64,000 nt of DNA from an uncultured Candidatus Saccharibacteria bacterium (GCA_964545165.1 CAZJEQ010000003.1:52990-116989); one strand, 5' to 3'; positions 2,641-58,693 are shown, counted from the stretch's first letter. A program made the numbers and translations. The notes: generated by a model from the letters alone, not told the origin.

Positions 2641-2701
2641 TGCCGAGATCCGAGATAGAGCGTAGTATAGAGCCATCTCGGATGCCGAGATGGCGAGATC
2701 C
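2641..2701. promoter_or_regulatory. Cluster of CGAGAT / ATCTCGG hexamer repeats including a perfect 9-bp inverted repeat ccatctcgg-atg-ccgagatgg (2673-2693); candidate operator
   Basis: Anchored to ORF 2499..2843. Tandem ccgagat appears at 2643-2656, the inverted repeat at 2673-2693, and another cgagatc at 2694-2700. The site lies ~215-270 nt upstream of the gatB start. Confidence 0.35.
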
Positions 2702-2870
2702 CCTGAAGAACAGATACCGGCGCGGGCGAAGCTTCGCAAATTGCTATCACTCTCGCCTGCACGCGGTTCGGCTCGATAGAGCATGGTCTTGGGAGGAGCA
2801 GTGTGATCGTGCCGAAAATCGCGCGATTCTTACCCTGGCATAGAGCCTTTTGGGAAATCGCGATACAACA

Positions 2871-2912
2871 CACCGAAAAGAAGACCGCAAGCCCTTTTGG
2901 TTCGCGGTCTTC
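2871..2912 (-). terminator. Rho-independent terminator downstream of secA
   Basis: A 9-bp GC-rich stem (gaagaccgc/gcggtcttc) sits ~30 nt after the secA stop. It is followed on the minus strand by TTTTCGGTG. Confidence 0.6.
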
Positions 2913-2941
2913 CCTTTCCGAGTCCTGATTGCGGAGCGCTT

Positions 2942-5470
2942 TTACTGCACAATGCGCCACCCTTTCTTGAGATAGTCCTCTGCTTTTTTGAATTTCATTT
3001 CAAGCGTCTCAGTGCCGTTGGTGATCTGAACTTTGTCATTGCGCGCGAATGATGCAGGAGAGAGCGATGCGCTCTGCGTAACCGAACGCGCAGCATTTTC
3101 TATTGCACGCTGCCCGGGTGCGGCGACCTGCACTGATGCTGCAGGCGCGACGCCGATGTTTGCGAGCGCGGCAAGTGATTGCTCAGCGTACGTCTCTTCC
3201 ATTCGCTGGAATAAACGAAGGCCTTCTTTTTTATATTCGATGAGTGGATCACGCTGACCATACGCGCGAAGATTTACTGAGCTGCGCAAATATTCCATCG
3301 CTTCGAGATGCTCAACCCAGAGAAAGTCGATTCCCTGCAGAAAGAGTCGGCGGACCGACGGGTAGAAATTCTCACCGAGCTCAATGCGCTTTTTGTCGAC
3401 TGCTGCGACCGCATCTGCATCACCAAAGGTGAGCCGCTCCAGCTCCCCTTCCAGATCCTGATCTGCTCCGGTGAGCATCAGCCGGCGGCGCGCATAAATG
3501 CTCTGACGCTGGATGTTGAGGACGTCATCATAGGCGAGCACGTGTTTGCGGGCATCGAAGTTGAGCTCCTCGATTTTGATCTGTGCCTTTTCGAGCGAGC
3601 GCGTAATCATCGAATTGTATATGGGTTCATCCTCAGGAATCTTGAAGGTGCCCATCACCCGTTTGATCATGTCACTGGCGAAAATGCGCATGAGACTGTC
3701 TTCGAGCGAAACGAAGAATTGTGTCTCTCCCGGATCGCCCTGACGGCCGGCGCGGCCGCGAAGCTGGTTGTCGATGCGACGTGCTTCGTGACGCTCCGTG
3801 CCGAGCACGAAAAGACCACCGAGCGCTTTCACCTCTTCGTAGCTTTCCTGCGTGCCAGGATTTCCTCCGAGCTTGATGTCGACGCCGCGACCAGCCATGT
3901 TGGTGGCGATCGTGACGCCTCCTCGCTTGCCTGCCTGCGCGATGATCTCGCCTTCACGCTCGTGATTCTTCGCATTCAATACTTCGTGCGGAATGCCTTC
4001 CTGTTTGAAGTGCGCAGCAAGGAGCTCGTTCTTTTCGACTGAGACGGTACCCACGAGGACCGGCTGCCCCTTTTCGTGGAGCGCTTTGACACTGCGTGCG
4101 ATGGCGCGCATCTTGCCGGATTCCGTCTGGAACATCTGGTCATCCAGATCACGTCGCTCAGCCACCTTATTGGTGGGCACGACCACTGTATTGAGGCCAT
4201 ATACCTTGAAAAACTCTTCTGACGAGGTGGCTGCAGTACCGGTCATACCGGCGAGCTTGCCGTAGAGTCGGAAGTAGTTTTGGAAGGTAATCGAGGCAAA
4301 GGTACGGCTCTCCTGCTGTACCGAGACGCCTTCTTTGGCTTCGATTGCCTGATGCAAGCCATCTGACCAGCGACGGCCCGGCTGGAGGCGGCCAGTGAAC
4401 TCATCGACAATAACAATGGAGCCGTCGCGGACGACGTATTCCTTGTCGTTATGGAAGAGCGCAGCGGCGCGCACGGCAGTTTCCAGATGGTGTGCGAACT
4501 TGATGCTCTGATCGGTATATATATTGTCTATACCGAGTGCCTGCTCTGCCTTCTCGATGCCGTGGTCGGTAAGCGTAATCTGCTTCTGCTTCTCATCGAC
4601 CGCGTAGTCTTCATCTCGTACCATCGTACACGCAATCGTCGCGAATTTGTCGTACAACGACTCAGCGTCGGCCACCGGTGCGGAGATAATCAGAGGGGTG
4701 CGCGCCTCATCGATCAGGATTGAGTCGATTTCGTCGACAATAGCGAAGTTGTAGCCACCCTTTTCAGGAAGGCGTTGGCGCAACTGCTCCTTCTGGTACT
4801 CAAGATTGTCTCGAAGGTAGTCGAAGCCGTATTCATTGTTGGTACCGTATGTGATGTCAGCTTCGTACGCTTCACGACGTGTGACAGGGCGGAGAAAGTC
4901 GTGCATCACCTTAAAACTACCGACAATATCAACTTCCTTCTCTTCCCCTTCGCGCTTTTCATCAGGGATGGCGAGCGGATCATATATAAATGATGCTTCG
5001 TGATTGAGAATACCAACCGTCATGCCGAGCGCATGGTAGACCTGACCCATCCATACTGCATCGCGACGAGAGAGGTAGTCGTTGACAGTGATGACGTGGA
5101 CACCGTTGCCGGTAAGCGCATTGAGGTACGCAGGGAGCGTGGCGACGAGTGTCTTGCCTTCGCCGGTGCGCATCTCAGCAATACCACCCTGGTGCAAAAT
5201 CATGCCACCGATAAGCTGTACATCGAAATGGCGCTGCCCGAGCGTACGGCGAGAGGCCTCACGGACTGCCGCGAATGCCTCAGGGGCCAGGTTATCGAGC
5301 TGCTCACCCTTTTGAAGACGTTGTTTAAACTCTGCGGTCTTCTGCTTCAATTCGTCATTGGTAAGTGCCTGCATGGCACCCTCCAGCGCATTGACCTGCG
5401 GCACAATAGGCTCCGCGCGACGTAGGGCCGCGTGGTTTTCGTCTCCAAATACTCGTTTCAAAAACGACAT
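2942..5470 (-). CDS. secA: Preprotein translocase ATPase SecA
   Basis: 842 aa. The N-terminus (...HFDVQLIGGMILHQGGIAEMRTGEGKTLVATLPAYLNAL) and DEAD-motor motifs match SecA. There is an AGGA motif upstream of the ATG. Confidence 0.95.
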   Translation of the reverse strand: MSFLKRVFGDENHAALRRAEPIVPQVNALEGAMQALTNDELKQKTAEFKQRLQKGEQLDNLAPEAFAAVREASRRTLGQRHFDVQLIGGMILHQGGIAEMRTGEGKTLVATLPAYLNALTGNGVHVITVNDYLSRRDAVWMGQVYHALGMTVGILNHEASFIYDPLAIPDEKREGEEKEVDIVGSFKVMHDFLRPVTRREAYEADITYGTNNEYGFDYLRDNLEYQKEQLRQRLPEKGGYNFAIVDEIDSILIDEARTPLIISAPVADAESLYDKFATIACTMVRDEDYAVDEKQKQITLTDHGIEKAEQALGIDNIYTDQSIKFAHHLETAVRAAALFHNDKEYVVRDGSIVIVDEFTGRLQPGRRWSDGLHQAIEAKEGVSVQQESRTFASITFQNYFRLYGKLAGMTGTAATSSEEFFKVYGLNTVVVPTNKVAERRDLDDQMFQTESGKMRAIARSVKALHEKGQPVLVGTVSVEKNELLAAHFKQEGIPHEVLNAKNHEREGEIIAQAGKRGGVTIATNMAGRGVDIKLGGNPGTQESYEEVKALGGLFVLGTERHEARRIDNQLRGRAGRQGDPGETQFFVSLEDSLMRIFASDMIKRVMGTFKIPEDEPIYNSMITRSLEKAQIKIEELNFDARKHVLAYDDVLNIQRQSIYARRRLMLTGADQDLEGELERLTFGDADAVAAVDKKRIELGENFYPSVRRLFLQGIDFLWVEHLEAMEYLRSSVNLRAYGQRDPLIEYKKEGLRLFQRMEETYAEQSLAALANIGVAPAASVQVAAPGQRAIENAARSVTQSASLSPASFARNDKVQITNGTETLEMKFKKAEDYLKKGWRIVQ

Positions 5471-16075: not shown

Positions 16076-17057
16076 GCGTCGCCAAGAGCTTCCTCATGTC
16101 CTTTTCGGAGAGGATTTGTTCGTTAGTATCACTGTAATATTCAAACCCTTCAGGCAATTTCTTCGCACCCGCGTATTTTTTCATGTCGTAATTGATCTCT
16201 TGCAGTGATGGTGAAAAGACAACATATCGATCACTCATTTCATACGCAATTCGTCCTTCTTCTTTCGTAACTAAGCACTCATGCAATTTCTCTCCCGGTC
16301 GAATACCAACAATTCGACACGTGGCCTCAGGCGCGATGGTTTTGGCAAGATCAACTAATTTCATAGAGGGAATCTTTGGTACGAACATTTCGCCGCCCTG
16401 CATAATCTCAAGACTCGTGAGTACCAGGTCCACGGCATCTGAGAGTGTGATCCAGAAGCGCGTCATACGCTCATCTGTAATCGTCAGCTCCCCCTTCGCC
16501 TTCTGCATTTGGAAAAGTGGAATCACGGAGCCGCGACTTCCCATGACATTACCGTACCGCACGACGGAGAACGCAGTCTGACGATGCCCACGATAACTAT
16601 TAGATTGCACAAAGAGTCTATCGGAACAGAGTTTTGTGGCGCCATACAGATTCACCGGGCTCGCCGCCTTGTCGGTAGAAAGTGCAATAACACGTGGGAT
16701 GTTATTGTCGAGCGCGGCATTGATAACATTCATTGCGCCGTCAACATTGGTCTTGATCGCTTCCATCGGATTGTATTCGCAGGCAGGCACCTGCTTCATT
16801 GCAGCGGCGTGGATGATGATGTCGACACCTTCGCTCGCGCGACGCACTCGTGCTGCGTCGCGCACATCACCAACAAGAAAACGCAGCTTTGGTGAATCAT
16901 TGAATTCACGCTGCATATTCCACTGTTTCAACTCGTCGCGACTGAACACGCGAATCACTTTTGGATTGTGCTCTTCGAGGAGTTTCTTGACGCACGCACG
17001 ACCAAATGATCCCGTGCCTCCAGTAATTAGGATGGTTTTACCATCAACAATCGACAT
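16059..17057 (-). CDS. UDP-GlcNAc 4,6-dehydratase (PseB/CapD-like extended SDR)
   Basis: KTILITGGTGSFGRACVKKLL... The length and motifs fit PseB/FlaA1. Confidence 0.8.
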   Translation of the reverse strand: MSIVDGKTILITGGTGSFGRACVKKLLEEHNPKVIRVFSRDELKQWNMQREFNDSPKLRFLVGDVRDAARVRRASEGVDIIIHAAAMKQVPACEYNPMEAIKTNVDGAMNVINAALDNNIPRVIALSTDKAASPVNLYGATKLCSDRLFVQSNSYRGHRQTAFSVVRYGNVMGSRGSVIPLFQMQKAKGELTITDERMTRFWITLSDAVDLVLTSLEIMQGGEMFVPKIPSMKLVDLAKTIAPEATCRIVGIRPGEKLHECLVTKEEGRIAYEMSDRYVVFSPSLQEINYDMKKYAGAKKLPEGFEYYSDTNEQILSEKDMRKLLATLETHE

Positions 17058-24367: not shown

Positions 24368-25720
24368 CTACTGAGCACCTCCCTTCCAGTCGATGAGGCG
24401 GAGAATGTTTTTCAAGGGCATACAGTACGCCTCGTCTGCCTCATGCGAGCGACCATGCTCGAGGATGGACTCGGCCGTCTTGACCATGGCAGGATAAGCA
24501 CTTCTGAGAAGGTGATTGGCATAGATCACCATGTTGACCCCTGCTTTCTCAAGCTCTGCTTCCGTGATGACGTTGTAGGTCGTTGGCACCGCGACGAGCA
24601 TCACTTTGTCTTTAAATTTCGCATACGCTTTGCAGAATTCGAGAACCTCTGCGGGATCCTTTTCTTTACTGTGGATCATGATGCCATCCGCACCTGCCGC
24701 AATATAGGCCTTTGCACGAATGAGCGCATCCTCAACCCCTTTCCCAGCGATAAGACTCTCGAGTCGCGCGATGATCATAAAGTCTTCCGTCACCTGCGCG
24801 CGTTTTCCTTCGTGGATCTTGTGCGCGAATGCATCCACATCCTCGAGCTGTTGCTCAACTTCGGTGCCGAAGAGCGAATTCTGCTTGAGGCCGCGTTTAT
24901 CTTCTATGATCACCGCCGAGACACCAAGGCGCTCGAGTGTGCGCACCAGATACGGGAATCGCTCTGTCATCCCACCTGTGTCGCCATCAAACACCAGCGG
25001 CTTCGTCGTGACTTCGAGGATGTCGTGGAGCGTGGTGACACGCGAGGTGTTGTCGACGAGCTCGATGTCGGGCTTACCCTTGGACGTCGAATCCGTGAGA
25101 CTCGACGACCACATAAAATCGAAATCGCGCTTCACGCCGTCGACGACGACCGAGGTGTGCTCGGCGATAAGTCCCGTGAGTCCGTTGTGCGCTTCGATAC
25201 CACGGATGAGGGGCTTTGCCTGCAGCAGCCGATTCAAGCGTTTGAGACGGATCTGCGGAGTGGTGCCAATTTCTTTGAGCGCCGCATTGAGGGCGGTGGA
25301 TGAGACACCGCGCGTGTACGGCACCTCGACGAGCTGACCTCCCCACGAGCTGAGCGTTTCGATGACCTGCTCGCGCGTGCGGCGCTGCACCCCGTGTTTC
25401 CAATCGTCGCCATGCACCACAACATCAGGTTTGTACTTTTTCAGATTCGGGCGGTAATCGAGAGTTTTTTGTGGCACGACCTGCGAGACCCCTTTTATAT
25501 TTTCGATCACGACTTTGCGCTGCTCATACGGCATGTGTGGCAGGCGCTTGTAGCTCGCGATAGCGGTATCCGTGAGGAGGCCGACGGTGACGTCGCCCAA
25601 CTCCGCACCCTTTTGGATGATATTCAAATGTCCGGGATGGACAAGATCTGCGCTCATGCCGATGTAGACCTGGGGGTGCTTTTTAGACGGCGAGGAGCTC
25701 TTTTTGTTGTTTTTGACCAT
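24368..25720 (-). CDS. Fused cytidylyltransferase / PEP phosphomutase (Fom1-like)
   Basis: N-terminal HxGH nucleotidyltransferase ([18 protein letters not shown]). C-terminal PepM/ICL-fold ([15 protein letters not shown]...). Start set at internal M20 of tracked ORF 24368..25777. Confidence 0.8.
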
Positions 25721-25788
25721 GTCAGCAAAGTACAACTTTTGGGCCAAAATTGCAAGTCCCTTACGGGGACAGCGCATCTCTGCAGCGA

Positions 25789-41173: not shown

Positions 41174-42517
41174 TTAACGGCTTTCATCAATTATGTTCCA
41201 CTCACCTTTCTTGGCATGTTTGATGGCATACACGGCACCGCATGCGGCGAGCGACAGCGCGAATGCCGCCAGCCACCAGAGATAGCTGCCAGTATCCACA
41301 CTGCCCGCAGCAGCAAGCGAAGATGACGCCACGATGGATGTTGTTGTCGCAACTTCCTGCGGCCGTGCCTCCTCATCTACTCGAGACACCGTACTCGGCA
41401 CAAACGTGCGAGTGACCGCCGGTGGAGCAACGGTCACCGCGACTGACGGTGCGGGAGCAAATGCAGCAGGGGCAGCGCTCAGGAGTTCGGCGCGCATGCC
41501 GTTGGGGTACTGCAGTTCCGTCTGCGGTCCCACGGTAAAGCCGAGCGTGCTGTTGGGAATGCGGAGTGTTTCGCCTTCGAGAATAACGGTTCCGTCGGGG
41601 AAGACGAATGACCTCCCGAACGAGCGCACGAGCCACCGGGAAATATCGATGTCTCTCCCCGCTTCATTTCCTATCGAGATTGATCCATCTGCGTTCACGC
41701 TGAAGTGCAGCTCCGCTGGCTCAGCAGTGACGAGAATGCGGTCCGATGCCGCCGAGATATGTTGCGCAATCGTAAGGACGACTACGTACGTGCCGGGGTA
41801 TGAAAAGTTATGGAGAACGCTACTGCCATCCGCGACCGTGCCATCGCCAAAATTCCAATTGAAACGCACATTGTCGACAATCTCTTGATCGCGATTGTAT
41901 GCCCGTCCGCGAAATTCTGTGTCGGCTCCCACGATGACCATACAATTCTCACCACCATCGGCAAAGACGGCTGCGACGGGTGGTGCCACATACGAAGACA
42001 CGATCGTACTATTCGATGATTGCGAAGATGCGGTTGTCGAGGTGCTGGTTTGCGAATTCGTATTCTGATTGCTCGATGAGCCGCTCCCGATGGTGATGAG
42101 TTGCGTCGCGGTCCACGTCGCGCCTGCTGGATCCCAGCCCGTGCAGGTCGAGCCCGGGCGAAGCGCGGCTTTGACGGTGAGCGTAACGGTGCCCGAAGAG
42201 GCATCGCGGTAGTAGAAATTGCGGCGGAATTGGCTTGTCGAGAGCGTGAGCGAGAGTGCCGAAGTAGGTGTCGCTGGCCACGAGCTCTCGTTGGTCGAAA
42301 ATTCTCCCGAAGCAGACGAGGAGGTGACCTGCATACACACGCTATTACCGTTGACCGCGACGCCAGCAGCATCCTGCGCTTCGATCGTGATCTGCGCCGA
42401 TACCGTCGATGGTGCGACACTCTGCACGTCAGTCGTGAATGCGATGTGATCAATTGCCGCAGCTCCCACGAAAGACGGGAGCAGGAGTGCGACGAGGACA
42501 AGAGAGATCCTCCTCAT
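41174..42517 (-). CDS. Cell-surface protein: signal peptide, beta-rich domains, Ser/Thr-rich linker, PKD domain, C-terminal TM anchor
   Basis: MRRISLVLVALLLPSFVGAAA signal. PKD motif WNFGDGT...HNFSYPGTYVVVLT. C-terminal YLWWLAAFALSLAACGAVYAI plus a KHAKK tail. The tracked TTG extension to 42646 is rejected. Confidence 0.65.
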   Translation of the reverse strand: MRRISLVLVALLLPSFVGAAAIDHIAFTTDVQSVAPSTVSAQITIEAQDAAGVAVNGNSVCMQVTSSSASGEFSTNESSWPATPTSALSLTLSTSQFRRNFYYRDASSGTVTLTVKAALRPGSTCTGWDPAGATWTATQLITIGSGSSSNQNTNSQTSTSTTASSQSSNSTIVSSYVAPPVAAVFADGGENCMVIVGADTEFRGRAYNRDQEIVDNVRFNWNFGDGTVADGSSVLHNFSYPGTYVVVLTIAQHISAASDRILVTAEPAELHFSVNADGSISIGNEAGRDIDISRWLVRSFGRSFVFPDGTVILEGETLRIPNSTLGFTVGPQTELQYPNGMRAELLSAAPAAFAPAPSVAVTVAPPAVTRTFVPSTVSRVDEEARPQEVATTTSIVASSSLAAAGSVDTGSYLWWLAAFALSLAACGAVYAIKHAKKGEWNIIDESR

Positions 42518-42591
42518 ATGTGCATTATGACGCACACCTAGTATGTGCAAGTGCTCATGGGGCATCGGATGTGGATTTTGCGAACCCCCTC

Positions 42592-42635
42592 CCCTGCAGA
42601 TATAAATACGCGGTCGCGTATTTATATCTGCAGGG
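42592..42635. repeat. Perfect 20-bp-stem palindrome ccctgcagatataaatacgc-ggtc-gcgtatttatatctgcaggg
   Basis: It lies between the stop of the TraD-like ATPase gene and the start of the PKD gene. No T-tract follows on either strand. CTGCAG occurs in both arms. Confidence 0.5.
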
Positions 42636-42687
42636 CAACACAGCAAAAGAACACAAGATCGATTTGAATACCAGGCAGCGCGGCCGC

Positions 42688-44607
42688 TTAATCGTTTTTC
42701 TGCAATATCTCTTTGAGCGTGCCGTGCGAGATTTCGCCATGGTGGCGATCGCGCTCAGGTGTTTCGGGGCGCGGTGGGCGGGGCTGCTCTTGACGCTCCT
42801 CGCGTGCCTGCTGCTGCGGTGGTGTATGCGGCTCAGATCGGGGCACAAAGGCATCACGCGCAGCCTGTTGCTCACGCGGTGCACGGTGCATCTGCTGCAC
42901 GGTCTGCGGTCGCGGCTGCTCGCGCTTCTGTTCCCGCTTCTCACGGAGCACATCGATAGGTGAGCGTGTCGGCATCGCGATAGGTGCAGCGGTGCTCTTT
43001 GCAATACCTTCTGCGCGCGCCTTCTCGATCGCGTCACGCAGCGAATTGCGCTCTACTTTCTCGCGCTCTGCACGTACTACGGGCGCCGGAGCGTGGGCCG
43101 TATCGCGTGGCGCAAATACGGCGCGCGATTGTGAGAGTGGTGGCGATTGGGTCACGGCGACCGCTCGCGCAAGGACCGCACGCGGCTCGGTCCCCTCGTC
43201 GCGGGGCCGCGTGCCATAGGCACTCCCTTTTCGCTCCTTCTTTTCCTTTGGGGGCGCAATAAATTCCAGCTGCTTATTGTTGGTCACTGCTTCAACATCC
43301 ACACGGACACGCCCGTATTGCGCGCGTGAATTCGTAACCACATCGTCACGGTACGTAATCGCCGGCGCCTCGATGGGCGGAATGGTCTCGGCAGAAAACG
43401 GCGCCGTACCCACCCCGTCGATCATGAGCGTGAGGTAGATCTGCCCGATGCCGAGGCCGACCAAATCTTCTGGGAGGAAGGTGGGCTTAAAGACCGTCTC
43501 GAGTACTTCGGCGTCAAACGGGCCCACGCGGAACACGATGAGTGTGCCGACGTTGCCGAACACGGCATCGCGCACCTCCTCTTCCATCTGTTCGATGTAC
43601 TGGTTGGCGAGTGTGAGTGCGAGTTTGTATTTGCGTGATTCTGAGAGAATGTCGGCGAAGGCCTCGTTCATCATCGACTGGAATTCGTCGACATAGAAAT
43701 AAAAGCGCGGCAGGCGCGCGAGGCGCGCTGCTGGCTCATCGGCGCGCGACATCGCAGCGAGATAGATCTTGACCGTGAGCATGGATCCCAAGAGTGCGGC
43801 GTTACTCTCACCCATGCGCCCCTTGGAGAGGTTGACGATAAAGATCTTTTTCTCGTCCATGATTTTGCGCAAATCAAACGAGGAGTGCGGCTGCCCGATA
43901 ATGTTGCGGATCAGCGGATTCGCGGTGAATTGACCAATCTTGTTTTGAATAGCCGGCGTCGCTTCGCGGGTATACGTATCGGTAAAATTCGCGAATTCGT
44001 CCGTCCAGAATGCTTTTACGATCGGGTCCGAGATCTTCTCAATCACGGCATTGCGAAAGGTCTTGTTGGTGAGCATGCGATTCACATCGAGGAGCGTTGA
44101 GTCCGGATACTCGAGCAGCGCGAGCAAGGTATTTTGCAGGATGTATTCCATACGTGCTGACCACGCGTCCACCCAGATACGCTTGAGCGCCCCCATGAGG
44201 CCAGAGACGACGAGGTGGCGCTTGTCGAAGCCGACATCTTCCATGACGTTGAAGCCGAGCGGGAAATCCGTATCAAACGGCGCAAAGTACACGACGTCTT
44301 TCACGCGGTGCTCAGGGATGAAATCGAGCAGCTTCTCAGCGGTCGAGCCGTGCGGATCGATAAAGGCTATGCCCTCGCCATTTTGGATATCTTGAATCGC
44401 CATGTTCTCGAGCATGGTCGATTTACCCATACCGGTTTTACCGATGACATAGACGTGCTTACCGCGATCTACTGCACGAATACCAAACATCTCGCGCTTT
44501 CCGCGCGTATGGGTCGTCGCAAAGTAGGTAATGCGACGCTCATCGTCGTGCTGATCCGGATGTACTTTCGGACCTGTATCGGGTGCATCATGATGGTCCC
44601 CAGACAT
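42688..44607 (-). CDS. Soluble FtsK/HerA-superfamily P-loop ATPase of the TraD/TraG/VirD4 (TrwB_AAD_bind) type, copy 1
   Basis: Walker A VIGKTGMGKST. Walker B YFYVDEFQ followed by ...LALTLANQ. No N-terminal TM helices. A long Arg/Glu/Gln/Pro-rich disordered C-terminal tail. Confidence 0.65.
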   Translation of the reverse strand: MSGDHHDAPDTGPKVHPDQHDDERRITYFATTHTRGKREMFGIRAVDRGKHVYVIGKTGMGKSTMLENMAIQDIQNGEGIAFIDPHGSTAEKLLDFIPEHRVKDVVYFAPFDTDFPLGFNVMEDVGFDKRHLVVSGLMGALKRIWVDAWSARMEYILQNTLLALLEYPDSTLLDVNRMLTNKTFRNAVIEKISDPIVKAFWTDEFANFTDTYTREATPAIQNKIGQFTANPLIRNIIGQPHSSFDLRKIMDEKKIFIVNLSKGRMGESNAALLGSMLTVKIYLAAMSRADEPAARLARLPRFYFYVDEFQSMMNEAFADILSESRKYKLALTLANQYIEQMEEEVRDAVFGNVGTLIVFRVGPFDAEVLETVFKPTFLPEDLVGLGIGQIYLTLMIDGVGTAPFSAETIPPIEAPAITYRDDVVTNSRAQYGRVRVDVEAVTNNKQLEFIAPPKEKKERKGSAYGTRPRDEGTEPRAVLARAVAVTQSPPLSQSRAVFAPRDTAHAPAPVVRAEREKVERNSLRDAIEKARAEGIAKSTAAPIAMPTRSPIDVLREKREQKREQPRPQTVQQMHRAPREQQAARDAFVPRSEPHTPPQQQAREERQEQPRPPRPETPERDRHHGEISHGTLKEILQKND

Positions 44608-50756: not shown

Positions 50757-51668
50757 TTACCTCACTTTGTGGCCGCCAAATTGGCCGCGCAGCGCTGAGA
50801 CGACTTTACCAACAAAGCTCGGATTGTTTTCTGAATCGATGCGAAATTGGTACGAATCTTCAATCACCGGCGCCGGTACGTTAAATTCTTTTGCTGTCTT
50901 GACCGTCCATTCGCCTTCTCCCGTGTGCCCGATGGTACTAGAAATATCCGCGAGATCCTGACCACTCTCCTTGATCGCCGATCCTGCCCATCCAACAAGT
51001 CGCGATTCGATGACGCTACCGTTGTTGTAGATCTCGGCAACATCCTCGAGATTGATCGCAAAAGGGGATGCTTTGAGCACGCCAAATCCTTCGGCAAGGG
51101 CCTGCATCATGCCGTATTCGATACCGTTATGAACCATCTTAACGAAATGCCCCGCGCCCGCGCCCGGGAAGAATTTGTATGCCGTGCCGTCTTTGGCCAG
51201 ATCCTGGAAAAGTGGCTCGAATGCTTTGAATGCACTCTCGTCACCACCGACCATGAGGCACGCGCCGTTGAGTGCGCCACCGGGGCCGCCGGAGAACCCG
51301 ACATCTATAAAGCGAATACCTTTTTCGGCGAGCTGCTTTCCATGCTCGATCGATTCTTTGTAAAACGAGTTGCCGCCGTCCATCACCACGTCGCCCGGCT
51401 GCAAAATACTCGCGAGCTGTCTGAGGACATCTTCAACCGGCTTGCCCGCAGGGACCATCAGCCACACGAGACGCGGGGTATCACTCCCTGCGATCTCCGC
51501 AATGCTCGTGATCTGCTTCATGCCGGTCTCCATGGCCAATGCAGCGGTGACCTCCGCATTCATATCCATGCCTGCTACCGACCACCCTTTCTGCGTAAGA
51601 CGGCGGACAATGTTGGCACCCATCTTGCCAAGGCCGAGTATATTGAGCTCTTTTTTCATGTCAGTCAC
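50757..51668 (-). CDS. gnd: 6-phosphogluconate dehydrogenase, short (~300 aa) form
   Basis: LNILGLGKMGANIVRRL NAD-binding N-terminus plus the 6PGD fold. Confidence 0.8.
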   Translation of the reverse strand: MTDMKKELNILGLGKMGANIVRRLTQKGWSVAGMDMNAEVTAALAMETGMKQITSIAEIAGSDTPRLVWLMVPAGKPVEDVLRQLASILQPGDVVMDGGNSFYKESIEHGKQLAEKGIRFIDVGFSGGPGGALNGACLMVGGDESAFKAFEPLFQDLAKDGTAYKFFPGAGAGHFVKMVHNGIEYGMMQALAEGFGVLKASPFAINLEDVAEIYNNGSVIESRLVGWAGSAIKESGQDLADISSTIGHTGEGEWTVKTAKEFNVPAPVIEDSYQFRIDSENNPSFVGKVVSALRGQFGGHKVR

Positions 51669-53103
51669 TGATATCTGATTGTTCTAAAATTTCTTTCGTA
51701 TCAGGAGTGTACACCATGAGCGGCACGACATTCTGTTGCCAGGCTGCAAGGATCGGATCAGTAAAGCGCCACATCGCACGCACCTCCGCGGTCGAGATAA
51801 AGAGCGTCTGGTCGCCGCGCACACCATCGAGCAGCAGCTTCGCGTACTCCTCGACATACGCAACCTTCGCCTGCGGCTCGCGGAGCAGATAGTGAAATTC
51901 ACGACGCTCCGTCGCAAACGAGAAGCCCGGCGTCTTGGACCAGAATTCGATGAGAATCTCTTCGCGCGGCTCCAATCTGATTACGACCTCGTTTTTATGA
52001 TGCGGCTCCTCTGGTGGGCAGAGGCACGGCTGCGGATGACGGAACACAATACGGATTTCCTTTTGCGCGCTGCCAAGACGTTTCCCACCCTCCATCGTAA
52101 TCGGGACGCCGCGCCAATTCGGATGATCGAGGTAGGTGCGTACCTTAAAGAATGTCTCCGTCTCAGAATCCGGCTTCACACCATCAATCGCACGGTATCC
52201 CTCATACTGGGCGCGCACGGTCGAGCGCTCGATTTCTTTCTCGGACAAAGAGGGGAGGCACGCCAGGATCTCCGCTCGGCGCTCCTGAATAGCCGCCGCG
52301 TCAAAGCTCTCTGGGTGGCGCATCGTAAGCAGCGCGAGGATCTGCAGGAAGTGATTTTGTCCGACATCACGAAATGCGCCGACGTCGTCATAAAAGGCGC
52401 CGCGCTTCTCCACACCGATTTCCTCCAGCATGCTGATTTTGATGGATTCGATGAGCTTCGAGCCCCACTGCATCTCGAAGAGATTGTTGGCAAAGCGGAA
52501 GGTGAGTATGTTTTGCAACATTTCCTTGGCGAGGTAATGATCGATGCGATAGATCTGGTCCTCAGAAAAATACTGCGCGAGCAAGAGATCCAGCTCACGC
52601 GCTGTATCGGTATCCACACCAAAGGGCTTTTCCACCATCACGCGCATCCAGCCGCCGCCCGGCCCACACGGCTCCGAGAGACGCGAAGAGGAGAGTTGCT
52701 TAAAGATCGTTTCGTAAAATTCGGGTGCAACCGAGAGATAGAAGAGCTTGTTCGAGCAGACACCCCATTCCTGATCGAGCGTATCAAAGGTCGACTTCAA
52801 CGCCGCGTAACTCTCAGACTCGTCGAAGTCACCGCGCTGGAAGCGGAAAATCTTGAGAAAAGAGGCGAGTTCGTGCTTGGTAAATTTCTTGTTGCGGTGC
52901 TCGCTAATAGTCGTGACGATAAAATCTGCAAAAGTCTCATCCGTCAGATCACGGCGCGAGAATCCCACCACATGGAACATGGAGGGGAGTTCGTCCTTCT
53001 CGTATAAATAGTAGAGCGCGGGAATGACCTTGCGACGCATCAAATCTCCCGTCGCTCCAAACGCCACCAGAATCGTCGGAATATTCTCATGTGGCGCGAC
53101 CAT
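51661..53103 (-). CDS. zwf: Glucose-6-phosphate 1-dehydrogenase
   Basis: ILVAFGATGDLMRRKVIPALY and RIDHYLAKEMLQN motifs. Start set at internal M66. TATAAT lies 8-13 nt upstream of that ATG. Confidence 0.9.
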   Translation of the reverse strand: MVAPHENIPTILVAFGATGDLMRRKVIPALYYLYEKDELPSMFHVVGFSRRDLTDETFADFIVTTISEHRNKKFTKHELASFLKIFRFQRGDFDESESYAALKSTFDTLDQEWGVCSNKLFYLSVAPEFYETIFKQLSSSRLSEPCGPGGGWMRVMVEKPFGVDTDTARELDLLLAQYFSEDQIYRIDHYLAKEMLQNILTFRFANNLFEMQWGSKLIESIKISMLEEIGVEKRGAFYDDVGAFRDVGQNHFLQILALLTMRHPESFDAAAIQERRAEILACLPSLSEKEIERSTVRAQYEGYRAIDGVKPDSETETFFKVRTYLDHPNWRGVPITMEGGKRLGSAQKEIRIVFRHPQPCLCPPEEPHHKNEVVIRLEPREEILIEFWSKTPGFSFATERREFHYLLREPQAKVAYVEEYAKLLLDGVRGDQTLFISTAEVRAMWRFTDPILAAWQQNVVPLMVYTPDTKEILEQSDISD

Positions 53104-53214
53104 AGCGCTCGCATTATACCCGCCGGATACTGATAAGTTTGACTTCCCCCCTACCCTGTTCTCCGTTGAGTTATCCACAGGTCCGAGATCACACCCGAGA
53201 GCCATAATGATGAC

Positions 53215-53400
53215 CGCGTTCGAACACTCGTAGGTGGAAAGTGAATCAGGGTGCAATTCCCTGGCTGTCGCGCAACCGTATAGTCGGAGCCTTTCCATTC
53301 CCCTCTTTCAAGGGCTACGTTCCGGCTCGCGCCAAGTCACCTTCCACAACTCCCCTTGTGGATCCTCATGACCCCGCGATCCGGGGTTTGTCGCGTATGT
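53215..53400 (+). ncRNA. Candidate cobalamin (AdoCbl) riboswitch
   Basis: The core 53234-53291, GGUGGAAAGUGAAUCAGGGUGCAAUUCCCUGGCUGUCGCGCAACCGUAUAGUCGGAGCC, aligns by eye to the recalled E. coli btuB segment AGGGAAUCCAGUGCGAAUCUGGAGCUGACGCGCAGCGGUAAGG and to the T. tengcongensis GGGUGAGAAUCCCGCGCAGCCCCCGCUACUGUGAGG. A 6-bp hairpin ACCCCG-CGAUC-CGGGGU plus UUGU follows at 53371-53390, just before the ATG. Not verified with a covariance model. Confidence 0.4.
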
Positions 53401-53401
53401 C

Positions 53402-55414
53402 ATGCAGGAAGTTGCAGAACAACCAATTGATTACGTATCCGAAAATAGTGTCGGCGATTTTGATTTTGAGCGCCCATTTGAAATTGCTAATGAAAACGAG
53501 ATGCAGCTGTCCGACGAGGAGGTCTCTCCCGAGCTACTCGCCGCGAACGACATCGATCCAGTGGGAGAAGCGATACGCCCGTATGTAGGTGAACAATCGG
53601 AGACGGTAACGAGAGCAGAAAATATAATGGAGATAAAAGATGGCGAACTAGTGGATAACAACAGCGGGCTATCTCTCACGCGAATGCTTGAAACATCTGG
53701 AAGCGATGCGGACAGGGCGCTGCACCAAGACATGATGCGGCAATGGCAAGAGGGCGGCAGCAATTTTTTTGTAAATCCGATATTGGAACCTGAATACTTT
53801 CCCGGCGGAGAGCGCTATTTCATTACAACGATGATCCTTGAAGCTGACGGCAAGAGTGTCAGTTATGAGACGCGCACTATTACTACTCTGTACAAGGACG
53901 AGGACGAGACGCCAGCGCGTGATAACGAATACGCGGAGTCCAGCTCTCAGCAATGGTCTGAACACACAGGGTCTCAGGAAATCGAGGCGAATTACCCGCA
54001 GAATGAACTCGCATATATGGAGCAGGCGGCAGCAGTTACGGTTGAAGAACCAGAGTCTGCCGATACCGAAGCAGCCATTACTACTACCGCACGAGAAAAC
54101 ACTCAATCTCAGCTTGAAGCAAACGTACCGACTACGATGGAGGTTCGTACAGAATCTGAAAAATCTATTGAATATTCGTACGCAGAAATTGCGCATCCAC
54201 GAGAAATACAGGCGCAGATATTAGGAGAATTCCTCGCCATGGAACAATTGCCTGCCATACCAGTAGAAGACGATTTTAATGAGCCAATTATCTTGAAGGC
54301 ACCTGAGCCAGCACAAGACATCCTGAACGAGGCACAGCGCGTTGAGCACTCAGAAACAAATCGGGCTCCTGTTGAAATCCCCACAAACAATGTTCCGAGA
54401 TTTGTAGAAACTCAAACCAGTGAAGTCATATTTGAACAAGCCGAAATTGTCCAAGAGCTCGCTGAGCAACCAGAAGTAACCGTACAGATTAAGACCGAGG
54501 TTCCTCGCACTAAACCTGCTGCTACCAGAGAAGTGCAGAGGATCGACGTACAGGACGCAGAGCTTCCGACATATGATTTTAAAGATGCGATTGATGAGAT
54601 CAGAGAAGTGACCTCAGTGGTTATAGAACAACAAGAGAAGCCCGTTGTGAAAGAGATTACGGAGCTTAAGCCAGAAGTAAAAACTGTCGAGCCACAAATT
54701 GTAGAAATCTTTAGAGGTCGCCGTGGTGCGCGACCAACGACTGAATCGGGATCATCAAGATCAAATCACGAGGAGCGGGCAGAGGAGCTGCGTACTGAGC
54801 CACAATCAATCGCCGAGCGAGCTGTCGAGCAGACACTTGAGCGATTCGCCGCTGAAATGATTCGCGCACGTCCCACGCAACAAGAAGATGCACACCGAGA
54901 GCCGTTCGTTGAGCTAAATGTACGTGCAGCTAATGAACATGATCTGGTCGTTGAAGCTGATGAGCAGGCACTGACCACACGTGAGCACGTACGAGTCGCA
55001 GAGAAAGTTGCGCCAATAATCCTTGAACAAAAGCCGACCATTTCATCAGAAACTCGTCTTCCCGATATTCCAGAAACACGTACTGATGAATCTCTACACA
55101 TCCCAGAGGAGCCTGCCGCTCAACCACATGTGACTGCTGAAGCCGCTCCTCAACGCACAGCGCATGAATCAGGCACTGTTGTTCCCTTCCCTGACCTCGC
55201 TCGCCCTGAGACAAGAGCAGCCTCTGGCATTGAACATATTCTTGAGCAGCTCCGCCTTCCCCGCTCCGCGAACACTCCTGAAGTGATCCGTGCTGCCAAC
55301 GAGAACCTCCGCACGAGCGCATCAAGTAATCTCGCTATGTCCGACGATGCCGACAATCAACCACGTACGCGCACCGTCAAATCTGGTCCGATCACGATGA
55401 GAATTGCCGCCTAA
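53402..55414 (+). CDS. 670-aa highly acidic (Glu/Gln/Asp/Thr/Ala-rich), low-complexity, probably disordered protein
   Basis: A long ORF on the plus strand. The Glu-rich composition is unlike the Arg/Ala/Pro-rich spurious ORFs in this window. No signal peptide, TM helix or recognisable domain. Confidence 0.5.
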   Translation: MQEVAEQPIDYVSENSVGDFDFERPFEIANENEMQLSDEEVSPELLAANDIDPVGEAIRPYVGEQSETVTRAENIMEIKDGELVDNNSGLSLTRMLETSGSDADRALHQDMMRQWQEGGSNFFVNPILEPEYFPGGERYFITTMILEADGKSVSYETRTITTLYKDEDETPARDNEYAESSSQQWSEHTGSQEIEANYPQNELAYMEQAAAVTVEEPESADTEAAITTTARENTQSQLEANVPTTMEVRTESEKSIEYSYAEIAHPREIQAQILGEFLAMEQLPAIPVEDDFNEPIILKAPEPAQDILNEAQRVEHSETNRAPVEIPTNNVPRFVETQTSEVIFEQAEIVQELAEQPEVTVQIKTEVPRTKPAATREVQRIDVQDAELPTYDFKDAIDEIREVTSVVIEQQEKPVVKEITELKPEVKTVEPQIVEIFRGRRGARPTTESGSSRSNHEERAEELRTEPQSIAERAVEQTLERFAAEMIRARPTQQEDAHREPFVELNVRAANEHDLVVEADEQALTTREHVRVAEKVAPIILEQKPTISSETRLPDIPETRTDESLHIPEEPAAQPHVTAEAAPQRTAHESGTVVPFPDLARPETRAASGIEHILEQLRLPRSANTPEVIRAANENLRTSASSNLAMSDDADNQPRTRTVKSGPITMRIAA

Positions 55415-55418
55415 ATAA

Positions 55419-57086
55419 ATGCGTATGTCCGACAAGAAAATCCCCTACTACAATCTCCGCCAAGAAGCCGAAGCAGGCAGACTTCCGATGCTTATCGGTC
55501 GCTTTGAAGAAATCGAGCGCCTGGATCGCATTGTGAATCGTCGCGTGAATAATAATGTCGCCATCGTGGCGCAGAGTGGCACGGGCAAGACAGCGCTCGT
55601 CTGGGGCTGGATGCGACACCTCACCTCACGAGAAGAATTCGCCGCACTCGAATTACTACAATTCGACACTGAGCACCTCTACGCGCTTGATGACGATCCG
55701 GCGCTCGAGGAGCGGTACATCGAAGCGCTCTTACACCTCCCGCAGTGCGTGCTCTTTATCGACGATTTCGGCCGTGAAGTCTCGCGCAACAGCGTGCTGA
55801 TGCAGCGGATCTTCCGCATCTACAAACGCATCCTCAAAGAAGCGCACATCCACATCGTACTCGCGATGACACCGCAAGAGCACGAGTGGTTTGAGCGCGA
55901 ATTCGCGGCATTCCTCCACCTCTTTGAGGTCGTTACGCTGAAGGAGCAGACTGCTCAAGAGCACGTACGCATCTTGAGCCGCACGATTCCCCAGCTCAAC
56001 AAAAAACATCGCATGATCGTGCCTGATTCGTCACTGCGCGAAGTCGTGGCATTCACCGAGCGCTTCCCGGCGCTCGGGCAGATGCCGAAAGCCGCGATCC
56101 GCATCCTCGATGAGAGTATTTCCTACAGTGCCTCCAAGCATCGCAAAGTATTGCGCCAAGACGCTATCGCGCATGTGATCGAAGCGAAAACGGGAGTGCC
56201 CAAATCCCGCCTCAATGCCGATGAGCTCGCTGATATCAAACATCTCGAGACCTCACTCAATGCCCGCGTGCGCGGCCAGGGCGATGCCATTGCACGGATT
56301 GCCAAGACGCTGCAGCGTGCAAAGCTCGGCCTCCGCAATCCCGATCGACCACTCGGCTCCTTCCTTCTCCTGGGTCCCTCCGGCGTCGGCAAGACCGAAA
56401 CCGCAAAGAGCGTCGCAGATCTTATCTTCGGCCGCTCCGAGAGCTTTGTGCGCTTCGATATGTCCGAATTCCAGCAAGACCATACGGTGCAACGACTCAT
56501 CGGCGCCCCCGCCGGATACGTGGGCTTCGAAGAAGGCGGTGCGCTCACCAATCAGCTGCGCAAAGAGCCGCACTCGCTGGTCCTCCTCGACGAAATCGAA
56601 AAAGCGCATCCCAAGGTCTTCGATATTTTCCTCCAGGTACTCGACGACGGCCGCCTTACCTCAGGACAGAACGAGACCGTCGATGCGCGCAACGCAATTG
56701 TGATGGCCACCTCAAATGCTGCGGTCCCAGAAATTCTTGACGTGTTTGCACATACTGACGGGCAGGTCGACGAAACGTTTATGCAAGAAAAAGTAATGCC
56801 GGCGCTCGCCAAGACCTTCCGTCTGGAATTTATTAATCGTTTCGATGCGATCCTCGTTTTCAAGCCACTCTCGGTATCAGGCCTCATCGAAATCGCGCAG
56901 CTGGAGATCAAGAAGATCGAGAAGCGTCTCGAGCGACACGGCGTGCAATTCGATTTTGTGCCCGCAGAGATAGAAGCAAAAATCGCGACACTTGCTGATC
57001 CACGTTTTGGTGCTCGTCCAGTGAAACGCTACATCGAAGAGACCTGCGAGACATTACTCGCCGACACCTTACTCGCCTCACGATAA
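55419..57086 (+). CDS. Compact ClpA/ClpB/ClpC-family AAA+ ATPase (two AAA modules, no N-domain or M-domain; D1 Walker B degenerate)
   Basis: D1: IGRFEEIERLDRIVNRRVNNNVAIVAQSGTGKTALV, with Walker B VLFIDDFG (DD in place of DE). D2: LLLGPSGVGKTETAKSVA...LVLLDEIEKAH...DGRLTSGQNETVDARNAIVMATSNA. Confidence 0.8.
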   Translation: MRMSDKKIPYYNLRQEAEAGRLPMLIGRFEEIERLDRIVNRRVNNNVAIVAQSGTGKTALVWGWMRHLTSREEFAALELLQFDTEHLYALDDDPALEERYIEALLHLPQCVLFIDDFGREVSRNSVLMQRIFRIYKRILKEAHIHIVLAMTPQEHEWFEREFAAFLHLFEVVTLKEQTAQEHVRILSRTIPQLNKKHRMIVPDSSLREVVAFTERFPALGQMPKAAIRILDESISYSASKHRKVLRQDAIAHVIEAKTGVPKSRLNADELADIKHLETSLNARVRGQGDAIARIAKTLQRAKLGLRNPDRPLGSFLLLGPSGVGKTETAKSVADLIFGRSESFVRFDMSEFQQDHTVQRLIGAPAGYVGFEEGGALTNQLRKEPHSLVLLDEIEKAHPKVFDIFLQVLDDGRLTSGQNETVDARNAIVMATSNAAVPEILDVFAHTDGQVDETFMQEKVMPALAKTFRLEFINRFDAILVFKPLSVSGLIEIAQLEIKKIEKRLERHGVQFDFVPAEIEAKIATLADPRFGARPVKRYIEETCETLLADTLLASR

Positions 57087-57090
57087 ACCT

Positions 57091-57408
57091 ATGCACACAC
57101 GCGAAACACTTCCATCCCGCGAGCATTTCACCAACACTGCGGCGCCAGCGACGCAGGAAAAGGCACGTGTCTCACTCGCGCATGCCGACGAGATCCATGC
57201 GAGCCGCCGCACCATGCTCGAGGGTCTTGCCTCGAAAATCGGCTCACGCCTCTTCGAGGCCCTCTCGCGCAAAGTCGACCACGAACGCAGCGCCCTCGTC
57301 GAGATGATCGAGCGCGATGCGAAAGCCGCTGAGACCAAGCGCCGACTCGATAAGGTGCTCAAAACTGAATACTTTACGTACCGAAAACTTGATACCAATT
57401 TACTGTAA
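57091..57408 (+). CDS. Small alpha-helical hypothetical protein (105 aa)
   Basis: It starts 4 nt after the clp-like stop and ends 4 nt before the next start. Confidence 0.5.
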   Translation: MHTRETLPSREHFTNTAAPATQEKARVSLAHADEIHASRRTMLEGLASKIGSRLFEALSRKVDHERSALVEMIERDAKAAETKRRLDKVLKTEYFTYRKLDTNLL

Positions 57409-57412
57409 TCCT

Positions 57413-58693
57413 ATGCATACGGTCTCTATTGGCGAAAATGTGTACCACGGCAAGCGACGCCTGATTGAATACGCGGCAGATGATCGTCTGCGCCATATGT
57501 ACATGATTGGCAAAACGGGCGTCGGCAAATCGACGATTTTCCAAAATATGTGTCTGCAGGATATCGAGCGCGGCAGTGGTACCTGCTTTATTGATCCCCA
57601 TGGAGAATCGATTGAATGGCTCCTCGCGCGCATCCCCGCGGATCGCCTCCAAGACGTCGTCCTCTTCGACCCAAGTGACACCGACTACCCCTTTGGGCTC
57701 AACCTCCTCGAGGCGCGCGACGAATTCGAGAAGGATTTCCTCGTGAATGAATGCATCCAGATTTTCTACAAACTCTTCGATCCTAAGAAGAGCGGCATTA
57801 TCGGTCCCCAATTCGAGCACTGGCTGCGCAATGCCGCACTCACCGTGATGGCCGGGCCTGACGGCGGATCAATTCTCGAAATCCCGCGCCTCTTTGTCGA
57901 CAAAGAATTTGAGCGCACGAAACGCGCGCACCTCACGGATCCGCTCGTCCTCGATTTCTGGACCAAGCAGATGGCAAAAACGTCGGATTTCCACAAGAGC
58001 GAAATGCTCAACTACTTCATGTCGAAATTCGGCCCCTTCATCAACAACGCCATGATGCGCAATATCATGGGCCAGCATGTGAGCAGCTTCGACTTTAGTG
58101 CACTGATGAATGGGCGCGCCATCGTGCTCGCCAATCTCTCCAAAGGCAAGATCGGCGAAATGAATGCGCACATGCTCGGCCTCATCCTGATCTCGCGCTT
58201 GCAGGCGGCGGTGCTAGGGCGCGCCAAAGACCCGCCACAGAGCCGCACCCCCTTCTATCTGTACGTCGACGAGTTTCAAAACTTCTCGACCGACACGTTT
58301 ATCTCGCTCCTCTCTGAGTCACGTAAATACGGCCTCGGCATCCATCTGACCAATCAATACCTCTCACAGCTGCCGGAGAGCATCCGCGATTCGGTACTCG
58401 GCAACGTCGGCACGATGGTCTCATTCGAAGTCGGTGCTGAAGATGCACGTCTCTTGAGTGATGAATTCGCACCGATGTCAGAAGCAGATTTCATGGGACT
58501 CCCGCGCTTTAATTTCTTCGTAAAACTTATGATGGGTGGGAAAACCAGCGAAGTCTTCTCGGGCGTCGGGCTGCCGCCACAAGACATCGCCGCGACGAGC
58601 GCCTCGCGTGAGAGCGTGGTCGCATTGAATCGCCTCGCCTATGGCTGGCCGCGCACGCTCGTCGAAGAGACCGTGCATCACCAGCTTCGCTAA
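57413..58693 (+). CDS. Soluble TraD/TraG/VirD4-type (FtsK/HerA superfamily) ATPase, copy 2
   Basis: Walker A MIGKTGVGKST. Walker B FYLYVDEFQ followed by ...GIHLTNQ. Collinear paralogue of the 42688..44607 product. Start set at internal M33 of the tracked ORF. No TM. Confidence 0.65.
   Translation: MHTVSIGENVYHGKRRLIEYAADDRLRHMYMIGKTGVGKSTIFQNMCLQDIERGSGTCFIDPHGESIEWLLARIPADRLQDVVLFDPSDTDYPFGLNLLEARDEFEKDFLVNECIQIFYKLFDPKKSGIIGPQFEHWLRNAALTVMAGPDGGSILEIPRLFVDKEFERTKRAHLTDPLVLDFWTKQMAKTSDFHKSEMLNYFMSKFGPFINNAMMRNIMGQHVSSFDFSALMNGRAIVLANLSKGKIGEMNAHMLGLILISRLQAAVLGRAKDPPQSRTPFYLYVDEFQNFSTDTFISLLSESRKYGLGIHLTNQYLSQLPESIRDSVLGNVGTMVSFEVGAEDARLLSDEFAPMSEADFMGLPRFNFFVKLMMGGKTSEVFSGVGLPPQDIAATSASRESVVALNRLAYGWPRTLVEETVHHQLR

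Follow-up and report, generated by a model that had tools for sequence, protein, structure and literature searches.

A predicted cobalamin riboswitch in the leader of a conserved four-gene operon of candidate phyla radiation bacteria

Cobalamin riboswitches usually control genes for B12 transport or biosynthesis, nrd genes, or metE. Riboswitches are among the most reliable guilt-by-association markers, and unknown genes located behind B12 riboswitches have repeatedly proved to encode new corrinoid transporters or binding proteins. Bacteria of the candidate phyla radiation (CPR), which are ultra-small and hard to culture, are believed to rely on their neighbors for cofactors. Here, we describe a leader RNA encoded on a 64,000-nucleotide (nt) stretch of DNA (GCA_964545165.1, CAZJEQ010000003.1:52990-116989; hereafter, the window) that, judged by its family membership score, is a real cobalamin riboswitch. 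Very probably, the RNA is functional, belongs to the 5' leader of a Paceibacteria/Kaiserbacteria (CPR) four-gene operon, and turns the operon off when B12 is bound. The novelty lies in the predicted regulon, a CPR-specific and highly conserved two-ATPase operon tied to B12; the RNA itself belongs to an established type, its aptamer being unusually reduced.

The closest described systems are the AdoCbl-II riboswitches, of which env8HyCbl (PDB 4FRN) represents the Cbl-IIa type, and the Cbl-I riboswitches, exemplified by E. coli btuB and T. tengcongensis 4GMA. Cobalamin riboswitches have a known architecture in which a short J1/13 linker leads to a stem-loop L13 (PMC5028336), and an L5-L13 kissing loop, including an unpaired purine and the stem-loop L13, is common to them (PMC5028336; PMC7367189). 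The Cbl-IIa class is further defined by a bulged, ligand-contacting J1/3 and a loop-capped P6 (PMC7367189). Ligand selectivity (adenosylcobalamin versus methylcobalamin or hydroxocobalamin) is not readable from sequence (PMC7367189). The window element resembles AdoCbl-II/Cbl-IIa in the four-way junction of P3-P6, the L4 sequence GNAAUUC, a simple-loop P6 without an extension, a B12-box J6/3, and a P13 hairpin that follows after a short linker and bears a loop complementing L5. In contrast to Cbl-IIa, the bulged J1/3 is missing; P1 stacks directly on P3 at the 5' side, and a hairpin is inserted at the 3' side. The window L13 (UCGC) contains no ribosome-binding site, and the start codon lies ~70 nt downstream. 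Two further differences from AdoCbl-II/Cbl-IIa are that the output looks like termination plus an anti-terminator, not ribosome-binding-site sequestration, and that the controlled genes are not B12 genes.

Features of Cbl-I appear in distant orthologous leaders, which match RF01482 (53.6-66.7 bits) and RF00174 (38.5-45.5 bits). In these relatives, P6 is extended by a hairpin, and the L13 loop (CGAGCA or UCGAGUAA) resembles the RF01482 consensus loop UCGAGGCAA. The window differs from Cbl-I in having neither the P2 module nor the long P6 extension, its clade having lost the P6 extension and altered both L5 and L13; the P6 extensions of the relatives, in turn, are single hairpins of 12-87 nt rather than a P7-P11 domain. 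Given that the window belongs to RF01689 while orthologues from other clades fit class I-type models, one orthologous lineage spans Rfam families. A B12 riboswitch before a gene of uncertain function has also been described for M. tuberculosis ppe2 (PMC11260477). The ppe2 aptamer is atypical in another way, its mechanism is linked to an upstream open reading frame (ORF), and its operon includes cob genes, whereas the cassette described here has no recognizable B12 gene. Full-text literature searches returned no paper linking cobalamin riboswitches with Patescibacteria or the CPR nothing relevant on the CPR and ribonucleotide reductase, and no mention of the two-ATPase operon. A preliminary description of the window, prepared from the sequence alone, called such a regulon unprecedented; the word is not provable, and M. 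tuberculosis ppe2 (PMC11260477) provides a related case.

Rfam 15 (4227 families) was searched with cmscan over both strands of the whole window at gathering thresholds, which returned two matches, a tRNA and RF01689 (AdoCbl-II). The latter spans 53234-53298 on the plus strand and scores 39.6 bits (gathering score, 36.5 bits; E 6.1e-6), with nearly all upper-case consensus positions matched in the alignment. When 53000-53600 was scanned permissively (E up to 10), RF01689 was recovered with E 5.7e-8, and all other matches scored 19 bits or less. The second-best riboswitch match in that scan was FMN (11.7 bits, E 6.1); no match was obtained to the SAM family, including SAM-I, or to the cobalamin clan on the minus strand. 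The preliminary description had likened a 58-nt core (53234-53291) to the conserved region of AdoCbl riboswitches, and this core equals the J3/4-P4-P5-P6-B12-box part of the RF01689 match. Its prediction of a plus-strand cobalamin-clan match above the gathering score, with no better-scoring family, SAM-I match, or minus-strand cobalamin match, was likewise borne out.

The surrounding sequence (53215-53400) is a spacer between divergent genes, zwf on the minus strand and, on the plus strand, a 670-amino acid ORF starting at 53402. A minus-strand ORF of 545 amino acids (51661-53298) that overlaps the riboswitch was rejected as an artefactual N-terminal extension of zwf. A zwf start at 53103 fits the Pfam G6PD domains, and the orthologue in one related locus (L002) is 477 amino acids in length. 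Because the overlapping ORF is spurious, the riboswitch element is intergenic.

The contigs bearing the closest homologues of the Clp-like protein encoded by gene 2 carry the same four genes together, with variable flanking genes; the names attached to these homologues include Candidatus Kaiserbacteria, Paceibacterota, and Parcubacteria. Scanning metagenomes for the highly conserved product of gene 4 contributed 80 more loci, while a contig profile search with the Clp-like alignment returned ordinary ClpB/ClpC loci of all phyla and one true relative (L005). The sources of the loci include groundwater sites, represented by Hainich contigs (Hain-H41/H43/H51) and JGI metagenome contigs. Just upstream of gene 1, RF01689 matched in L002 (41.2 bits), L004 (37.0 bits), L001 (32.5 bits), L089 (31.2 bits), and L085 (23.5 bits), and RF01482 matched in L086 (34.7 bits) and L091 (65 bits). 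The gathering score was passed in 8 of 15 further loci, comprising four for RF01482 (L114, L143, L157, and L098), two for RF00174 (L155 and L118), and two for RF01689 (L126 and L124). Several loci score under the Rfam gathering score because of insertions in L4 and the P6 loop. L005 gave no Rfam match at E up to 1, yet the element was found there by two covariance models, R1 and R2. R1 was built from the window clade alone and performed poorly on the 3' parts of distant relatives when these were aligned; it was replaced by R2, built from trimmed cores.

With R2, exactly one match per locus was obtained in 50 loci (E <=4e-10), all on the plus strand and all upstream of gene 1, and no other match was found in 809 kb searched on both strands. 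Every one of the 50 related Paceibacteria/Kaiserbacteria loci with a contig extending upstream of gene 1 has the element. Loci without an R2 match are those in which the contig ends inside or before gene 1 and those with a distant gene-4 paralogue and no Clp gene; the distant TraD-like loci L165 and L169-171, which have no Clp gene, gave zero matches. In L136, the element was recognized on inspection by eye. The link between riboswitch and cassette is kept in every locus examined, down to 42% Clp protein identity. Because the riboswitch is found at the operon in all 50 loci that reach upstream of gene 1, the operon appears to be tied to B12 supply.

Within the window clade (seven loci), RNAalifold and inspection gave P1, a continuous P3, P4, P5, P6, and a variable hairpin between P3 and P1 (Table 1). 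The window aptamer is minimal, having no P6 extension and an extra hairpin between P3 and P1. This hairpin (53301-53314) varies in length and sequence within the clade while its pairing is kept, and it is absent from every Rfam cobalamin model. Compensatory changes occur in both P1 and P3 within the clade; in P1, a C-G pair becomes U-A in L005 (UGUAG/CUACA) and a G-C pair becomes G-U in L089. P3 averages 8.5 uninterrupted pairs, is built from quite different sequences, and is complementary in nearly all loci. For the wider family, 40 distinct leaders were parsed by script, and their cores were aligned after insertions had been trimmed from L4 (35 nt at most) and from the P6 loop (12-87 nt). 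Across 36 orthologous leaders, 93.4% of the P4-P6 cells are paired, both-sided changes were observed in 8 of the 11 pairs of P4-P6, and the covariation score of 0.482 (versus <=0.143 for slid partners) was reached by 0 of 500 shuffles. The junction sequences of the clan are kept, namely J3/4 GGAA, L4, the GCCGCAAC-GGUAA stretch, and the AGUCCG B12 box. The P6 insertion is absent in the window clade and in L157, and most relatives have the P6 extension hairpin. Large hairpin insertions are borne by some orthologous aptamers, with P6-loop insertions of ~90 nt in L102 and L104 and L4 insertions of 22-35 nt in L005, L085, L112, and L127.

L5 and L13 change in step between orthologue classes, as a kissing loop requires. 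In most loci, L5 UGCCG is accompanied by the box CC-CGAGCA-GG, with five pairs and one bulged A. L091 and L113 instead have L5 UACCG with the box CGAGUA, L114 has L5 GCC with the box CGAGCA, and the window clade has L5 UCGCG with the box GGC-UCGC-GCC (CGCG with CGCG). In the window, CGCG at 53328-31 of the P13/L13 hairpin complements L5 together with one further base (CGCG, 53269-72). Since both partners are invariant within the clade, the support for a kissing loop in the window comes from the between-clade comparison. A kissing interaction of L5 with the loop of the terminator-like hairpin (UCGC with GCGA) was considered and dropped, as the invariant P13 box fits the known architecture better and covaries with L5 across clades.

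Farther downstream lie a middle hairpin and a terminator-like hairpin. The stem of the middle hairpin covaries (CCGCAU/AUGCGG in L002; CCGCA/UGCGG in L004 and L085). Its loop is C/U-rich in the window clade (CUCCCC, CCUCCUC), and several class-B leaders have a conserved CAUA loop at this position (GCGUCG-CAUA-CGACGC and similar). Pairing of the P3 5' strand with the 5' arm of the middle hairpin, as found in the minimum-free-energy fold of the window, was set aside as it is not conserved in L005. The terminator-like hairpin consists of 53372-53376 paired with 53382-53386 and an optional A53371-U53387 pair, and it ends 14 nt before the ATG at 53402. Of the 40 leaders, 25 carry, under strict criteria, a hairpin followed by a U-run between aptamer and start codon; in most of the others, a weaker hairpin and U-run could be made out by eye in the leader tails. 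Strong intrinsic terminators are present in most relatives and precede the start codon by 4-60 nt or more. The main-class L13 box is complementary to the 5' arm and loop of the terminator, e.g., CCCGAGCAG with CUGCUCGGG in L112. In relatives, these box-terminator duplexes amount to -13 to -19 kcal/mol, versus about -5.5 for shuffles, and 200 shuffles yielded 10 or fewer that were as good in 16 of 28 leaders. The candidate anti-terminator of the window pairs UCGCG (53327-31) with CGCGA (53375-79) and GUCA (53336-39) with UGAC (53369-72), and for the window, L002, L004, and L085, minimum-free-energy folding of the platform yields anti-terminator pairing.

Table 1. Positions of the predicted leader elements and of the operon genes in the window
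Feature	Position	Strand	Remarks
DnaA box TTATCCACA	53171..53179	+	perfect DnaA-box consensus; ~25 nt upstream of the -10-like CATAAT
-10-like hexamer CATAAT	53203..53208	+	would set transcript start near 53215
P1 5' strand CGUAG	53229..53233	+	pairs with 53315-53319 CUACG; RNAalifold on 7 clade members
Cobalamin aptamer core	53234..53298	+	RF01689 match and covariation in 36 relatives
P3	53234-41 with 53291-98	+	
J3/4	53242-46	+	
P4	53247-51 with 53259-63	+	L4 = UGCAAUU
P5	53266-68 with 53272-74	+	L5 = CGC, 53269-71
P6	53276-78 with 53285-87	+	6-nt loop UAUAGU
J6/3	53288-90	+	AGC
Variable hairpin	53301..53314	+	CCCU/AGGG stem between P3 3' and P1 3' strands; paired in clade
P1 3' strand CUACG	53315..53319	+	RNAalifold, clade
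P13/L13 hairpin GGC-UCGC-GCC	53324..53333	+	4 nt after P1; CUCGCGCC invariant in 7 clade members
Middle hairpin CCACAA-CUCCCC-UUGUGG	53344..53361	+	between P13 and terminator-like hairpin; covarying stem
Terminator-like hairpin CCCCG CGAUC CGGGG, then UUUGU	53371..53391	+	
Gene 1	53402..55414	+	670-amino acid acidic protein, 136 D+E versus 61 K+R, no transmembrane segment
Gene 2	55419..57086	+	555-amino acid double AAA+ protein resembling ClpB/ClpA/ClpV; N and M domains absent
Gene 3	57091..57408	+	105-amino acid protein, no family match, no transmembrane segment
Gene 4	57413..58693	+	426-amino acid soluble TrwB/TraD/HerA-type P-loop ATPase

These elements can be arranged into a candidate regulatory mechanism. 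Transcription would probably start near 53215, and the RNA would fold into a minimal cobalamin aptamer. Upon B12 binding, the L5-L13 kissing loop is predicted to form and to hold P13, and the hairpin at 53371-87 with its U-run would form; transcription would then stop, or initiation at the ATG 14 nt downstream would be impeded. When no B12 is present, the L13 box would pair with the 5' half of the hairpin as an anti-terminator, and the operon would be read through. Because the B12-free leader would permit read-through, the operon is expected to be expressed when B12 is scarce. That B12 is the ligand, that the polarity is OFF, and which helix exactly switches in the window are all inferred.

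Several observations weigh against a functional B12 switch in the window. The RF01689 score exceeds the gathering score by a mere 3 bits, and model positions 10-19 and 71-74, which correspond to the outer-helix/J1/3 region, are deleted. The paired fraction of P4-P6 (93.4% of cells) is inflated for P4 and P6, as complementarity was among the criteria by which the script placed the 5' arm of P4 and the 3' arm of P6; P5, which was aligned at fixed offsets, still has U-A to A-U and G-C to A-U exchanges. The kissing loop of the window comprises merely four G-C pairs, both partners of which are invariant within the clade. The preliminary description had noted a hairpin plus U-run immediately before the start codon; the hairpin is real, but the U-run (UUUGU) has three U, and a consensus terminator scan did not call a terminator in the window. 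The box-terminator complementarity of the window was matched by 36 of 300 shuffles, and that of L002, L004, L005, and L089 was not significant (these sequences are G+C-rich). For the window, the anti-terminator step is a candidate, and its pairing is not statistically distinguishable from chance in G+C-rich sequence. Lastly, family and PDB-fold searches revealed no known B12 link in any of the four proteins.

Some of these features could be taken as decay, in which case the window aptamer would be a degenerate relic that no longer regulates, an alternative already raised in the preliminary description. The near-threshold score with part of the model deleted, the weak U-run with no terminator called, and the loss in the window of the P6 extension found in most relatives are all compatible with such decay. 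However, the minimal architecture is kept in seven loci whose Clp proteins are merely 63-90% identical, and compensatory changes are present in P1, P3, P4, P5, and P6. The core and the L5 and L13 boxes are invariant while neighboring hairpins vary freely, and L157, which has an independently short L6, still passes RF01482. We reject the relic as very improbable; the element is conserved with compensatory changes at the operon in every related locus examined. A change of ligand would account for the non-B12 genes, as variant subtypes of other riboswitch classes have changed ligand, and the aptamer lineage at this operon might sense a non-cobalamin compound. The atypical genes, which include no transporter, biosynthesis, nrd, or metE gene, and the altered L5 and peripheral elements of the window clade would suit this explanation. 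We give it little credence, given that relatives at the same operon fit canonical cobalamin models well (RF01482, 65-67 bits), that the conserved junction sequences of the clan are retained, and that L091 and L113 have a gene for a B12-dependent ribonucleotide reductase immediately before the riboswitch.

A different output from the same aptamer and ligand is also improbable in our estimation. Here, the leader would control gene 1 translation or mRNA stability, or the terminated leader RNA would act in trans; B12-riboswitch-controlled small RNAs occur in Enterococcus and Listeria. The window hairpin, ending 14 nt before the ATG with a weak U-run, and the extra conserved leader elements (the middle hairpin and GUCAC) are consistent with such an output. 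Most relatives, however, have strong terminators whose 5' halves are complementary to L13, which is a classic transcriptional design, and L13 lacks a Shine-Dalgarno sequence. A cobalamin riboswitch that turns the operon off through premature termination remains our favored reading.

Genes 1-4 are spaced at 4 nt and form a predicted four-gene operon, because the next gene lies on the opposite strand. The preliminary description maintained that the downstream genes are not B12 genes, and our searches concur: gene 1 is without a family, gene 2 is ClpB/ClpA-like at sub-cut-off scores, and gene 4 is a distant TrwB/TraD/HerA-type ATPase. Families of the usual B12 regulon (transport, biosynthesis, cobalt transport, and B12-independent isozymes such as metE, nrdAB, and nrdDG) had no match among the four proteins, none of which has a transmembrane segment. 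Gene 1 returned no Pfam, NCBIfam, or PADLOC match. Its product has a conserved N-terminal domain of ~110 amino acids, a long, poorly conserved acidic middle, and a conserved C-terminal tail; an AlphaFold2 model of the N-terminal domain (predicted local distance difference test score of 73.7) had no fold match in the PDB. Nearly all gene 1 orthologues end in ...NGI(T/R)(L/M)(K/R)xAA-COOH, though their middles are hardly alignable. The conserved tail is given as ...NGITLKRAA, and the window protein ends in ...GPITMRIAA (55385-55411). This Ala-Ala tail, encoded beside a gene for a ClpB-like unfoldase, recalls the ssrA degron; gene 1 may accordingly serve the neighboring unfoldase as a substrate or adaptor. 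In our best explanation, the gene 1 product would be a largely disordered acidic protein, the gene 4 product would be an ATPase of the hexameric type, and all four proteins would be cytoplasmic.

The gene 2 product resembles the Hsp100/Clp proteins (ClpB, ClpV/TssH) in its Pfam matches to AAA_2 (1.4e-57) and ClpB_D2-small, accompanied by AAA_lid_9, and differs from them in lacking the N and M domains, as it consists of two AAA modules only. Its scores fall below the NCBIfam equivalog cut-offs for ClpB (394 versus 1232 bits), ClpA (362 versus 993 bits), and TssH (350 versus 885 bits). From our own reading of the sequence against the ClpA loop, it presumably lacks the IGF/IGL tripeptide for ClpP docking. 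The gene 3 position is occupied in relatives by a gene for 79-106 amino acids. Gene 4 is 71-95% identical across the family and displays Walker motifs along with weak matches to TrwB/TraD/CedD/HerA. The Walker motifs are shared with VirD4/TrwB, but the matches are limited to the P-loop region (TIGR03743, 43 versus 366 bits; PDB TrwB, E 0.029). In further contrast to a coupling protein, gene 4 showed neither an N-terminal membrane anchor nor a full-length model match, and the cassette has no other secretion genes. Separately, a second and longer TrwB/VirD4-like protein (639 amino acids; Pfam TrwB_AAD_bind, 3e-8) is encoded at 42688-44607 on the minus strand, ~9 kb upstream of the riboswitch operon. 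It is adjoined by a gene for a PKD-domain protein (41174-42646, minus strand), and no cobalamin element is nearby.

Upstream of the aptamer, the -10-like element (CATAATGA/GATAATGA) is kept at an equal distance from P1 in the window-clade loci L001, L002, L004, and L089, as well as in L085; a consensus promoter scan gave no full sigma-70 match. A DnaA box (<=1 mismatch) precedes the aptamer in 27 of the 40 related leaders, compared with ~0.07 expected per 220 nt. Its orientation is nearly constant, with two extra minus-strand matches. The box may reflect DnaA co-regulation of the operon or a lineage-specific promoter element. In L136, the TTATCCACA motif is found inside the leader (1437-1452), between the aptamer and the L13 box, in the hairpin CUGUGG-UUAU-CCACAG. 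Because of this location within a leader hairpin, the motif may also act at the RNA level.

In L091 and L113, the riboswitch is immediately preceded, in the same orientation, by a gene for a class II (B12-dependent) ribonucleotide reductase (2557-4893 and 1-1695, respectively). This nrdJ adjacency, the only link to B12 found among the genes at the operon, was seen in these two loci only and is absent from the window and the other loci; a tblastn search of the window with NrdJ found nothing. DnaA boxes and B12 riboswitches both regulate nrd genes in other bacteria. The nrdJ adjacency and the DnaA box are hints that link the operon to deoxynucleotide supply or replication. Our best guess, held with low confidence, is that the operon serves a B12-starvation response tied to B12-dependent deoxynucleotide supply or to replication. 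More specifically, and at less than even odds, the cassette could be a previously unrecognized B12-responsive, ATP-driven cytoplasmic machine of Paceibacteria that is on at B12 starvation and has a DnaA box at its promoter. Such a machine might secure corrinoid for the B12-dependent ribonucleotide reductase, or it might bypass or brake deoxynucleotide-dependent replication whenever this symbiont fails to acquire B12 from its environment.

The association yields a testable prediction for four otherwise uninformative proteins, namely that they are made when B12 is scarce. A single orthologous lineage also records the change from a P6-extended to a minimal aptamer with matching kissing-loop changes, which informs the evolution of cobalamin riboswitch classes. 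If the machine described above were to exist, it would represent a new functional class of riboswitch-controlled genes and provide a handle on the B12 dependence of the CPR.

The genes of the window are otherwise ordinary chromosomal ones (gatB, secA, glycan synthesis, mur ligases, gnd, zwf, and purT), and Pfam scans of 28 of its larger ORFs found no B12-related families. A large glycan-synthesis cluster (12500-38900) encodes NeuB, DegT aminotransferases, glycosyltransferases, and an O-antigen ligase. The same cluster contains a phosphoenolpyruvate mutase/cytidylyltransferase fusion (24368-25777, minus strand), which suggests phosphonate-decorated surface glycans. In L002, a sub-threshold match resembling the cspA thermoregulator (35 bits versus 78) is present at 16148-16564 on the minus strand, adjoining three cold-shock-domain genes.

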